DNA from: Phoronis australis
Taxonomy: Eukaryota > Animalia > Phoronida
Assembly (NCBI GenBank): GCA_002633005.1
Contig: NMRA01000063.1
Span: forward strand, 62,001-126,000
DNA: 64,000 nucleotides
Direction: 5' to 3'
The position numbers and the translations under genes were made by a program. Shown piece after piece: positions 46,201 to 55,200 of this stretch (positions are counted from its first letter, which is position 1; each line of letters opens with the position of its first letter). The notes under the pieces are model-generated. The model worked only from the letters and a program-made list of their open reading frames with translations, ran no database searches and was not told where the DNA came from.

Positions 46201-49200
46201 ACCTTACCCTTTTTAGATGGGTTCAATGTATTCTGTGCCATCAAAGGGCCATTTTTTGTGATATAAATATACACCCTTAGAAGCAATACCGTGGGCATAT
46301 TTCAACACTCCGCCCTGCTCTGTGGTCCCAGTACTGGTGTCGCTCCCATATTAGTCTTTTGTTCAAAATATATCATTAGGGTATAAATTTGAAGTACCTC
46401 AATCACTGAAGATGTGGTATATTAGTGGACTAGTTTGGTTGTGAAACACTCTGTGCCTGGCCAGACAGCACACGAGGAAGTGATACAAATTCACCTTGAA
46501 GTGTTGCACAAATGGACGGCCACACTGGAGGCTAAGTAAGCAATAATTAACAGAATGTGATGTTGTAAAGACTCATTGTGAACCACTCATGGTTTAATTA
46601 TTTTATGTGAAATTATAATAAGAACATTGTTCAGAAAGACTGCATGTGACAGTTGTTGTAACGTCATGTGAAAGATTGTGGGATTCTTAACTGTTTTGTT
46701 CACTCCCAAATATGTTGTTGCAACAAGTATTCAATTTTTCACCTGAAGGCAAATAAAACTGTGTTGCTTGCTCATATGCAGTCTGGCCAAGTCTTTACAC
46801 ATTGAAGGACTGTTTATACAGGCCTCCCAGTGTGAAAAACATCCTGCTAATTTCAACAGTTCATGTGACTACAGATAGTACCGCGTACTAGAAATGGGGG
46901 CGTTGCAAACGGGAATTAGCCATATTTTTTTCCTGTGAATGGAATACAGTTTCTCCCTAGAGGGCAGCAGTGTTGTATTTTGAACATTAGCTAGTCTTAA
47001 TTCTGCACAGTGTTTTCTTGACGTGCTCCCAACTCATCTTTCTCATCTTTGTCTAGGCGAAAATGTGACTGGTAAGTTTGGAGGCAGGGTTATACTGTGT
47101 TGCATAGAACATTACATTCTGTACCAAGACTAATTTGTTTCCTAGATGTTGAACACGCTGCATTCTATAGTCCTTTTATTCTAGACATTCATTTTGTCAG
47201 CTGCAGTGAGCAAAACAGATGTTACGACAATTTCGTGTTTTTCGATAAATACTGATCAAACTGTAGCACACCAATGGAAGTTTCATTAATGGCATTTGTT
47301 TACATTTTCTTCTACATCGTTAAGCATTCTTTCAAAATTTTAAAATTTTTAAAAATCAGCATTTAATATTTCTTCCTGGTAGAGGCTTTGTTTTGTTTGC
47401 TACATCTCACGCTGTGCACAAATTTGCATATGCGCATATCATCATTGCTTTGCTGGGTAAAGAGCTAACCAAACCACAATGCTTGTATGGTTTTATTTCA
47501 CTTGTATTACATTATTATTATTACTAATTGGAGTAAATGCACCTACATGTACATATTACCGTCATCCCTGTCTGGTCATCAAGGTTCCTCTGCTGTAATT
47601 CCAAAACCCTTGAAGGGTTTTCATAAAATTTGGCAGATTTGTTCTTATGGAGCTGACATATTCGGTGCCACGTAGTCGCCATTTTTATTATTTTGAAATA
47701 ATTTTTTTGGTGTCTGCCTCTCTATTTGGCAAACTGCTTGGAGGACAATAATGAAATTTGGCAAATGTGTTCCTACTGAGAACACTGCGGACATGGATTT
47801 TTGGAAGGGTCAGCCGACTGTGGCACCCCTTACTAGCAATTTTGTTTTTTGAGGAGAGCCCGACTAACATTGATTTCAGGAGGAGTTCAACTAATGTGGC
47901 ATCTTCTTGGGGCAATTTTTGTTTTCTTTTGCTTCTATTTCTACACAGATGATCTTCAGAAAATTTGAGGCATAAGCTTCTATTAAAGAAGCGACAAAGT
48001 TTGTCCAGTTTCAGAGGGAACTGCTTTTTGTGCTCCCTAGTGGCCTATTTCGTGTCTGGTTTTGTCTGTCTATTTGCAAACTGCTTGAACAATCATCATA
48101 AAAGTTGACAGGTGTGTTCCTAATTAGGTGGGCATGGCCCACATAAATTTTAGACTGATCTACTGCAGTGCCCCTAGTGATAGTTTTACTTTTCTTTACA
48201 TTTGTCCTTTGATGAATCTTCATGTGTGTGTATTCCTATTAAGGAAAGATGTGCTGTAGCCATTTTTTGGATGGATCTGGGATCTGTGCCAAATTGCTGT
48301 CATGTCTTAATGAGGACAGCCTTCTCAGCTTATGTTGATTTTCAAAGGGATTCATGGAAATGTTTTAAAAATTAGCACCAAACATATTTAAATGTGGGTG
48401 CATATTGCTGTCATCTTTGTTCGGATGTCCTGCATCTTAGTGAAATTTGCCAGATGTGTTCCTTTGAAGCTGACGACAGAGGACAATGAGTTTCTGATTA
48501 CCATTCTGCCCCCTAGTGGCAATTTTATTTTTTTACATTTGCTTCTGAATCTTTGGAGTTGCTCGATGAATTTTCATGAAATTTAGAAAATAAGTGTCTA
48601 TCGAGGAGAAAATGATCCCTTCTCATTTTTGGAGGGATTGGACATATTCTGCCCCACCTGGTGGCCATTTTAAACATTTTCATTACATTTTTGACACCTG
48701 ATATCTGGCAAACCAGTTGAAGGATTATTATGAAAAATTTCAGACGAGTTCGACTACTGTGGCACCACCCTTGTGAAGTTATGGTTTTGCGTCCACGTCT
48801 GGAGGATGTTTGTGAAATGTGGCAGATATATTCCTACTTAGATGTTAAGGGATGCGATAAGTTGCAGACCAATCCAAGTAATGCTGTGCTCCTTAGTGGG
48901 CCTTTTTAATTTTTTTACTTTTACCTCTGTATCTTTGGAGTTCATTGATGGATTTTTATGCGCCCACATATTTATATGTGGTCATATATTGCCGTCATCT
49001 CTGTCCATCCGGCGTCCACAGCTGAATCTCCTAAACCCCTCACAGGATCTTGATGAGATTTGGCAGATGTGTTGCTATGAAACTGACAACGGACGACGAC
49101 GAATTTCAGACCTCTCCGACTACCGGTGTGCCCCCTAGTGGCAATTTTATTTTTTTACGCTTATCTCTATATCTTCGGATGTCGTCAACGGATTTTCATA

Positions 49201-52200: not shown

Positions 52201-55200
52201 GATAATACCATTCATTGATCTGATGTAATTAATTATGTTGTGGACTCACAAGTGGCTCCTTCTATTGGTCAGTCATTGATCTTAGGAGTCGGGTGAGTTG
52301 CAACATCAGTTGAAATATTTCAGTGAGTTTCCATAAGTTTTGACTTACATGCTGTAAACTTATCAATACTGCACTCACACTCTGAGGTCTTCATGATGTC
52401 ACTGACTTAACCATTCCTCATTTGGGGGTGGGGGAGAGATTACCATCATCTTTCTCTTCAGTGACACCTAAAAGTTTGTGGAATGTGTGTGTTTGCCTGC
52501 TATGTTGATTAATTGAAATTAGAAAATCTTGACTAATTACCTGAAAATATAATTTGTTAAATCTAATGGTTGTTGCTTCATCTCTGCAGTCACTGGCGGT
52601 AAGTAACTGGAGTCTTATTGACATCAGGGTTTCCCTGCACCTTGAGTTTTTCATTCTGATGCCTTTCCTGGAAAGATGTGAATACGGTTTTCAATTTCTC
52701 AGCCAAGATGCTTACTGTGTCGTTTTTATCAAAAAATTGTGTTACTACCACCAAGTTGAAGATCCACATTTTTGGCTGTGCTCTATATATTTTTGTCTTG
52801 TAACACAAATTTGTCACAGCTGTTGTGCTATGAATGCTCCCTACTCATAGGCTGTTTGTTGCCTTAGGGGTTGACAGTAGCCACCTTTATCATCATTTCT
52901 ATTTAAATTTATGTCTGTAGCCATTGTTGGTGTGTTCATACAACCACTGTCAACTGTTTTTATTGTCCATGGCACCACACCTCAGTTTCACTTAATACAC
53001 AAAGTCACTGTTGGTTATCTTTACTATTAGTTTATTGTTATTGTTTATTTAACATGGTACTGTACTGCATGAGTGCTGTGGATCCCTGTATTCGTTTCTT
53101 TCCAGCCCGCTGCGCCACCTTGTGTTGCATTGTGCACTAAATTTCAGTTTCGATTCTTTTTCATTTCTTCCCTCTCTGCTTTGCACCTCGCACCCACGTC
53201 ACCTAACTGCCTGCAGAATGTGATAACGAGAAATATACCAATAAAGGTATTTATTACATGTCTCAAGTTCGGGAAACCACTGCGTTGTATGTTTGATGGG
53301 TTCAATGCCTCATAATCATACCCAGTTCTAACGGAGTCTCCAGAGAGGCTTCTGTGGAAGAGGCATCTACAGCAACCCCTATCTGGTCTTGAACCTGGAT
53401 CTGCGCCAGATAATACTACGATAAGCAGAGTCATTTAAAGATCCTTGTTCAATGCTAAAAATAGGAATGGGCAGTATCCTGAATTTTGTAAAATTTTGAA
53501 ATGCGATGAGTCACTGTTGATGCGTTGTGAGGCTCATCAAGTATAAATATCACATAATGCATAGCAGCTGAATTGTTTGTTAAAATTACAGAAAGCAGTT
53601 TTTCCCCGAATTCACTTACATTCCTAGAATGAAGTAATTCTCTAAGACCTAAAATAACACATTTGATGTGAATTTTTCTGTCTGCAACATCTCTAGTTTT
53701 CTACATTATTCTCAGTGTTTACTGTTTCTTTAATTGTCTATACTTGTTATTCCTAATTCTTGTGTAACATGATTATTTTTCCTTATTCCTTCCATGTTTA
53801 ATTTCTGCTATTTATGTTGTGTAATTTTCTATTATTTGTTTCTGATTTGGATTTTCAGTCTTAGCATGTCTATGATGCGCAGAAATATTTTTACATTGTT
53901 TTCCTCTATGCAATTCTTAAAGTCAGGCGTGTGTTGATCATGTGAGAGCATGTTAACTAGTAGTATTAGAGCATGGAACTTGGGCATCTTATGTTATCTT
54001 AGGTCATCCATGCATCTTGATAGACAGATATATAGACCTAAATGGCAAGTACTGGCTTTTCAGATCTGATGAATGGGCATTTTTCCTCATTTTAGTATAG
54101 CATTGCCTGAAAATACACAATTTACGTCATTGTGAATCGTGTAAGCATTTTCATCCTGTGACTGTAAGAGGTCTCTTACATATTAACATGTTCTGACTGC
54201 CTTCGGCCTGATGACTTTATGTTCATTATTTCCCCTGTAGATCATCGTGGATCTGTCGGAAACATGGACCTGAAGAGGGAGCTTTCATCTACAGAGTTCT
54301 CCCCACTGGGGCCTGACAGAAAAGTGGAGTACTTCTTCGCTTCTGATGCCAGGTAAGTCAGGAGGCGTCAAGGAAGTCGTTTAATTTTAGTTTAATTAGA
54401 GATTTTGGAAATGTCTACAAGTGTCACTGACAAGCGCTTTATCGCTACACCAAAAACCTTTTTCTTTTTATTCTATTGTTGCCATAATATGTGTTGCCCC
54501 TTTGAACTGTAGGAATACTGTAGCCTTGATCTGATTGGTTAATTTCTTTAGGAATACTGTAGCCTTGAGCTGATTGGTTAATTTCTTTAGGAATACTGTA
54601 GCCTTGATCTGATTGGTTTATTTCTTTAGAATACTGTAGCCTTGATCTGATTAGTTAATTTCTTTAGGAATACTGTTGCCTTGATCTGATTGGTTCATTT
54701 CTTTAGAATACTGTAGCCTTGATCTGATTAGTTAATTTCTTTAGGAATACTGTTGCCTTGATCTGATTGGTTAATTTCTTTAGGAATACTGTAGCCTTGA
54801 TCTGATTGGGTAATTTCTTTAGGAATACTGTTGTCTTGATCTGATTGGTTAATTTATTTAGGAATACTGTAGCCTTGATCTGATTGGTTAATTTCTTTAG
54901 GAATACTGTAGCCTTGATCTGATTGTTTAATTTCTTTAACAATACTGTAGCCTTGACATGATTGGTTAATTTCTTTAGGAATACTGTTGCCTTGATCTGA
55001 TTGGTTAATTTCTTTAGGAATACTGTTGTCTTGATCTGATTGGTTAATTTCTTTAGGAATACTGTAGCCTTGATCTGATTGCTTAGTTACTGTAGGAATA
55101 CTGTAGCCATGATCTGTCACTGTCCCTAGTGAATCGTTTACTCTTCCTTCAAAGCTGTCATCTAACACAGCCATTATGTGACCTTTGCACTGTCTGGTCA

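Follow-up and report, generated by a model that had tools for sequence, protein, structure and literature searches.

Alternatively spliced microexons in intron 7 of the Phoronis australis GFAT gene, at the junction of the mammalian muscle insert

The GFAT locus and its three microexons

The window analysed here is a 64,000-nucleotide (nt) stretch of Phoronis australis DNA (contig NMRA01000063.1, positions 62,001 to 126,000 of the forward strand), which carries a gene for glutamine:fructose-6-phosphate amidotransferase (abbreviated GFAT or GFPT), the enzyme that limits flux to UDP-N-acetylglucosamine (UDP-GlcNAc), used in glycosylation and chitin. We found that intron 7 of this gene (42316 to 54240) holds three very short cassette exons, mx1, mx2 and mx3, that are included in mRNA in a sample-dependent manner. 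The RNA data were a contig run (X1) and stranded raw RNA-seq runs (X3 to X5), with the same species label, from one study and with tissues not given; the analysis took in 18-19% of every raw run, and run X2 (share 0.06) was left out. The central features are as follows.

4102..63629, plus strand: GFAT/GFPT gene, coding exons 1-13 (exon 1 a candidate), with the 3' end beyond the window
42236..42315, plus strand: exon 7, constitutive, 80 nt, ending in YSK plus one nucleotide, phase 1 (exon 6 joint reads and the X1 contig)
47057..47071, plus strand: mx1, 15 nt, adds GENVT, phase 1-1 (12 X3 reads give exon 7 plus mx1 ahead of mx3, agreement 1)
52590..52598, plus strand: mx2, 9 nt, adds VTG, phase 1-1 (loose-end consensus in X4 and X5)
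53217..53246, plus strand: mx3, 30 nt, adds 10 residues, phase 1-1 (GT..AG joint to exon 8)
54241..54352, plus strand: exon 8, constitutive (RNA-seq reads and the X1 contig)

Exons 2-13 were located by tblastn of homolog queries against the window and, when joined, encode 555 amino acids with 0 stops and 79% identity to Lingula GFAT. Matches of this protein among homologs carry PF13522 and PF01380, and its N-terminal glutaminase and SIS domains, together with high identity to animal GFAT, place the gene in the GFAT/GFPT family; the C-terminal exons lie beyond the window. A quick tree of 35 sequences set the protein among lophotrochozoan GFATs (support 87), outside the mollusc group and on a long branch, leaving the phylum placement open. 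The joint between exons 6 and 7 was covered by 42, 21 and 45 reads in the three raw runs, as well as by the X1 contig.

The original prediction, made from the letters of the window, described three frame-preserving, stop-free phase 1-1 cassettes of 15, 9 and 30 nt, and their coordinates, lengths and phases proved to be as described: each is bounded by AG and GT, and all three together would add 18 residues. For a chance estimate, AG..GT candidates of 3-60 nt were scored with a rough splice-site weight matrix built from generic frequencies, in intron 7 and in 60 Markov-simulated introns. The microexons mx1 and mx2 ranked first and second of the six intron 7 candidates passing the thresholds, and at the mx1/mx2 score level the simulated introns held, on average, 0.05 candidates of at most 33 nt that kept the frame and lacked a stop. 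With its weak donor (GTATTT), mx3 fell below the thresholds; it is accepted as real because reads show its joint to exon 8 despite this miss. Other short AG..GT candidates in the intron (at 50854, 45549, 42936 and 44687) were rejected as frame-shifting or stop-containing, and no further exon appeared at the 3-read listing threshold in 51640-54480, a stretch that excludes those four. All three cassettes are very short, have canonical AG/GT boundaries and are both included and skipped in mRNA, as expected of microexons; some authors set a strict cut-off at 27 nt, which mx3 exceeds.

Microexon use in the RNA data

In an earlier mapping over 41850-54450, reads from a dispersed repeat predominated and exon 7-8 joints were not listed; in the mapping used here, exon 7 and mx1 lie outside the clean stretch and were identified from the loose ends of reads, not from joints. 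The repeat itself fills intron 7 at 42850-51620 with diverged copies, abundant in RNA reads and mostly on one strand, with read depth above 1000 at 43113-43954 (which includes an N gap at 43629-43747), and likely represents a transcribed transposon-derived family.

At the exon 8 acceptor, the 44 reads of X3 comprised 20 mx3 joints, 18 ends of mx1/mx2 type and 6 of skip type; the 18 reads of X4 comprised 2, 10 and 6, respectively (these 6 resembling a tie between the exon 7 and mx3 ends); and the 62 reads of X5 comprised 2, 53 and 7. In every raw run, reads containing a microexon thus made up about 85%; the contig of X1 represents the form that skips all three. The microexons are therefore real and alternatively spliced, all three being used in X3-X5, and splicing is not confined to the direct 42315-54241 junction in any of the raw runs.

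The consensus of the middle class was exon 7 plus mx2 both in X4, with 10 reads and an agreement of 0.75, and in X5, with 53 reads and 0.74; these agreements mean that other forms are mixed into this class. In X3 the consensus was a mosaic that could be fitted only by three-way mixes, with 7-8 reads of mx1, 3-7 of mx2 and 3-7 of mx1 plus mx2 among the 18; mx1 joined straight to exon 8 was decoded from this mixed consensus. Of the 18 X3 reads at the mx3 acceptor, 6 came from exon 7 and 12 from exon 7 plus mx1, with agreement 1 each. Accordingly, five forms were read directly or by consensus, namely skip-all, +9, +15, +30 and +45 nt (0, +3, +5, +10 and +15 residues), and the +24 nt form (+8 residues) was obtained by decoding the mixed consensus of X3. 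Neither the +39 nor the +54 form turned up, mx2 being present in none of the 18 X3 reads entering mx3. Six of the eight combinations originally foreseen are thus seen or decoded, but the counts support neither free combination of the microexons nor the full-inclusion form of 54 nt and 18 residues.

Two patterns stand out in these counts. Inclusion of mx2 was found in at least 10 of 24 non-mx3 reads versus 0 of the 18 reads that enter mx3 (Fisher P=0.002; halving the counts for mates gives 0.045), and inclusion of mx3 fell from 20/44 in X3 to 2/62 in X5 (Fisher P=1e-7, with mates not independent). Splicing thus switches with the sample, mx3 being abundant in X3 and mx2 in X4 and X5. Steric exclusion of mx2 and mx3 is unlikely because the exons lie 618 nt apart, and the likelier explanation is that each is used by a cell type or regulatory program of its own.

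In addition, X1 contains a 173-nt contig (depth 17.5) at 54059-54231, just upstream of exon 8, where X3-X5 show low sense-strand intronic coverage, possibly reflecting slow splicing or retention of the intron flanking the microexons.

The junction in mammals and in other animals

Human c.686 lies at the 5' end of GFPT1 exon 9, beside the acceptor (PMC7357421), so that exon 9 starts after codon 228 plus one base. When the window protein was aligned to human GFAT1 via a homolog, Thr228 fell at the YSK end of exon 7, making exon 7 the positional equivalent of human exon 8. By this alignment, intron 7 is positionally homologous to the intron holding human exon 9 and has the same phase 1; the predicted match with the site of the mammalian insert is thereby borne out, as is the placing of the cassettes in the loop before the RxxS equivalent to Ser243. 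The exon 8 motifs DHRGS and RELSS align by eye with human Ser235 and Ser243, and are putative phosphosites here.

The mammalian muscle isoform (GFPT1-L, GFAT1-L or GFAT1Alt) shows 53% of the Vmax, 215% of the KM and 20% of the Ki for UDP-GlcNAc; its exon is driven by SRSF1 and Rbfox, has a length of 48 nt in the mouse and is, according to reports, restricted to mammals (PMC13599463, PMC10514471, PMC11554261). The enzyme, the intron position after Thr228, the phase and a frame-preserving insert where the 228-239 loop begins are common to GFPT1-L and the Phoronis australis forms (PMC10514471, PMC13599463), and inclusion is regulated in both. Mammals, however, have a single striated-muscle exon of 54 nt (48 nt in mouse; 16-18 residues), whereas Phoronis australis has three separate exons of 9-30 nt yielding at least six forms, with full inclusion in 0 of 18 informative reads. 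The cassettes resemble GFPT1-L in where they sit and in what they probably do, but structurally they do not belong to its class. This comparison concerns position and phase; the protein database searches returned no GFPT1-L sequence, and the solved structures found were of the short isoform.

Cassettes at this junction are not confined to mammals and Phoronis australis. We tabulated 16 protostome groups from the 120 listed matches of a first search and their cluster members, choosing groups with several isoforms, and found a cassette at the junction in all 16 and at least two separable cassettes in 11 (Lingula, Mytilus, Pectinidae, Ruditapes, Mercenaria, Magallana/Crassostrea, Haliotis, Centruroides, Ornithodoros, Homalodisca and Bacillus rossius). 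In each of the 22 cassettes compared the first residue is A, D, E or G, matching the G-initial first codon expected of phase-1 exons; the cassettes are rich in D, K, T, S and E, and one type of 8-10 residues, similar by eye, recurs in chiton, gastropods and bivalves. Like mx1-3, the annotated protostome sets comprise at least two short cassettes used singly and together, but their lengths differ (cassette totals in other lineages are 13-27 residues), they show no detectable similarity to mx1-3, and no 3-residue cassette is among them. A database search for close relatives, made with exon 8 as query, was empty, which is weak evidence.

Among vertebrates, sturgeon and paddlefish GFPT2 has an isoform with 27 additional residues at the same point (5 of 120 listed matches), and the loop is also longer in two eel GFPT2-type proteins; most listed vertebrate GFPT2 matches are without an insert. 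A sturgeon-seeded search returned GFPT2-type vertebrate proteins, with none named GFPT1 among the 120 listed. In Drosophila, a 27-nt alternative exon of Gfat1, DmeEX0004495, is classed as neither eMIC-regulated nor neural (PMC8797185, table S2); it is likewise an alternative microexon in a GFAT gene, but a single event, catalogued at the level of the gene. The literature searched, which largely does not cover subscription journals and was screened in part by titles and the openings of abstracts, yielded no account of invertebrate GFAT cassettes at this junction, and nothing on GFAT, or Drosophila Gfat1, together with microexons. Similar isoform sets are nevertheless already present in public annotations, and microexon clusters are not rare. 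To view the phoronid case as a one-off convergence with mammals understates the pattern, since cassettes recur in protostomes and in sturgeon GFPT2. On the best reading, GFAT intron 7 is a recurrent, regulated splicing hotspot, with kinetic tuning by its products likely; it behaves like an old site of exon birth and replacement.

Two other kinds of variation were observed in the annotated isoforms. Differences of one residue at the junction (Haliotis P0028 versus P0029/P0030, Homalodisca P0089/P0090, Centruroides P0169/P0170) suggest 3-nt exons or tandem acceptors besides the larger cassettes. In addition, GFAT isoforms of lophotrochozoans (P0005/P0006; P0007/P0121/P0125, Lingula; P0009/P0130, Mytilus; P0126/P0127; P0162/P0165; P0030/P0031) exchange a stretch of the second SIS domain around residues 610-670, of which Lingula has three versions, a pattern resembling mutually exclusive exons. 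Alternative C-termini are used as well, and the matching exons lie beyond window position 64000.

Loop function, splicing regulation and competing explanations

We favour, with a probability of about 0.6, the explanation that three sample-dependent, partly exclusive microexons lengthen a predicted disordered loop and so tune enzyme activity and its feedback inhibition by UDP-GlcNAc, in the manner of the mammalian muscle exon. In the human GFAT1 crystal, residues 228-239 are unmodelled, S235 and S243 lie in these loops, and strand beta9 (221-223) adjoins strand beta14 of the interdomain linker (PMC7000685); the long isoform of Lingula, as modelled by AlphaFold, has a predicted local distance difference test score (pLDDT) below 50 at 217-270. 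The microexons would lengthen this glutaminase-domain loop by 0-15 residues, and the inserts may act through its position after beta9, the strand beside beta14, with loop length or charge shifting glutaminase-isomerase coupling and feedback sensitivity. Alternatively, they may change kinase access to the Ser235/Ser243-like sites. We found no account, in the accessible GFPT1-L literature, of how an insert in the unmodelled loop alters feedback inhibition. With inserts of 3-15 residues occurring naturally, the mechanism is open to direct testing.

Several observations weigh against this explanation. Read counts are small, at 18-19% of each run, and the fitted X3 mixes reach an agreement of 0.57-0.60 versus the 0.62 reported. 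The 16 protostome groups were picked for multiple isoforms, and their cassettes were deduced from annotated proteins, with genomic exons not part of the comparison. Comparison of the window peptides with the 22 cassettes of relatives gave no significant similarity (lowest shuffle P 0.054). No effect of human Ser235 phosphorylation on activity has been reported, and for Ser243 the published findings disagree (PMC8041777, PMC10138107). Finally, no other part of GFAT varies as much in length as this loop (standard deviation 8.1 residues, with 24 lengths among 60 sequences partly chosen for inserts), a variability that fits tolerance as well as function.

Tolerance is the basis of the strongest competing explanation, in which a disordered loop simply accepts frame-preserving microexons as they arise, with little effect on the enzyme. 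We consider such accretion possible but distinctly less probable than tuning. It would account for the lack of sequence similarity across phyla, the extreme variation in loop length, the low pLDDT and the D/K/T/S/E-rich composition of the cassettes, but it sits poorly with microexon inclusion in about 85% of reads, the strong switch between samples, the rank of mx1 and mx2 as the best splice signals in the intron, the recurrence of one cassette type across molluscan classes, and the measured effects of the mammalian insert at the same site.

A second alternative, which is compatible with tuning, is that a neural program dependent on eMIC proteins (SRRM2/3/4) gives neurons GFAT forms of their own. 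Targets of eMIC have UGC near the 3' splice site, a long AG-exclusion zone and a strong branch point (PMC8797185; bioRxiv 10.1101/2024.09.17.613571). The original prediction noted TGC upstream of the acceptors of the 9- and 30-nt exons, and it is indeed present, at -16 of mx2 (with CTAAT at -27) and at -9 of mx3; a CTAAY branch-like motif followed by TGC precedes both exons, a CU-rich tract precedes mx1, and the AG-exclusion zones of the microexons are 44, 65 and 67 nt long. Size range and frame preservation are also those of eMIC-dependent neural (SRRM3/4) microexons, with the features being weaker for mx1. Unlike in that class, however, these motifs do not stand out from the constitutive exons of the same gene: 6 of the 12 constitutive acceptors carry TGC at -40..-6, a TGC is found in 23% of 15-nt windows of the intron, and AG-exclusion zones, with a median of about 25 nt in the 12 constitutive exons, reach at least 64 nt in 4 of them. 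A single shared activator is moreover unlikely because mx2 and mx3 avoid each other, and the fly Gfat1 27-nt exon falls in the non-eMIC, non-neural ASE group (PMC8797185). The human exon is driven by SRSF1/Rbfox, and Rbfox-type motifs cluster in intron 7 too, as follows.

42478..42844, plus strand: four TGCATG (Rbfox-type) motifs, putative, clustered just downstream of exon 7

These four motifs lie within 530 nt after exon 7, compared with a Markov expectation of 0.26 (P about 4e-4 for 700 nt, an interval chosen post hoc), and another lies 150 nt before mx3; over the whole of intron 7, TGCATG is not enriched (8 seen versus 5.7 expected). Both eMIC and Rbfox are candidate regulators, and we give a neural eMIC program a low probability, slightly below that of tolerated accretion. 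Least probable by far, and largely refuted, is the idea that the three exons are the mammalian 54-nt exon in split form, or a convergent version of it, acting as one 18-residue insert: the lengths do sum to 54 nt, in the same intron and phase, but the 54-nt form is absent from 18 informative reads, the mouse exon has 48 nt, exon 9 is reported as mammal-restricted, and other lineages total 13-27 residues. The equal total, already suspected to be a coincidence, can be regarded as one because the full form was not seen.

A wider and more tentative proposal is that the intron located where the 228-239 loop begins has served as a regulated splicing dial since early bilaterians, with lineages adding or replacing cassettes to grade UDP-GlcNAc feedback by tissue and mammalian exon 9 as the latest case. 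The muscle insert has been treated as a mammalian acquisition (PMC13599463, PMC10514471); were the proposal true, exon 9 would not be a mammalian invention, and chitin, mucus, muscle and nerve would be the tissues concerned; the six natural loop variants of Phoronis australis, with mx2 and mx3 avoiding each other, would then offer a ready series for studying loop control of feedback. Regulated cassettes occur at this junction not only in Phoronis australis but also in molluscs, a brachiopod, arthropods and sturgeon GFPT2, which suggests a control point that has been used repeatedly.

At the 5' end of the gene, one further feature was noted.

4102-4108, plus strand: candidate exon 1, a pattern match only, with a chance expectation of 0.94

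Given this candidate, intron 1 (4109-37693) would be about 33.6 kb long; a TATA-like run lies near 4006, and several tandem arrays lie inside the intron. Intronic tandem repeat arrays also flank downstream exons, at 54500-55100 and 60750-61220.

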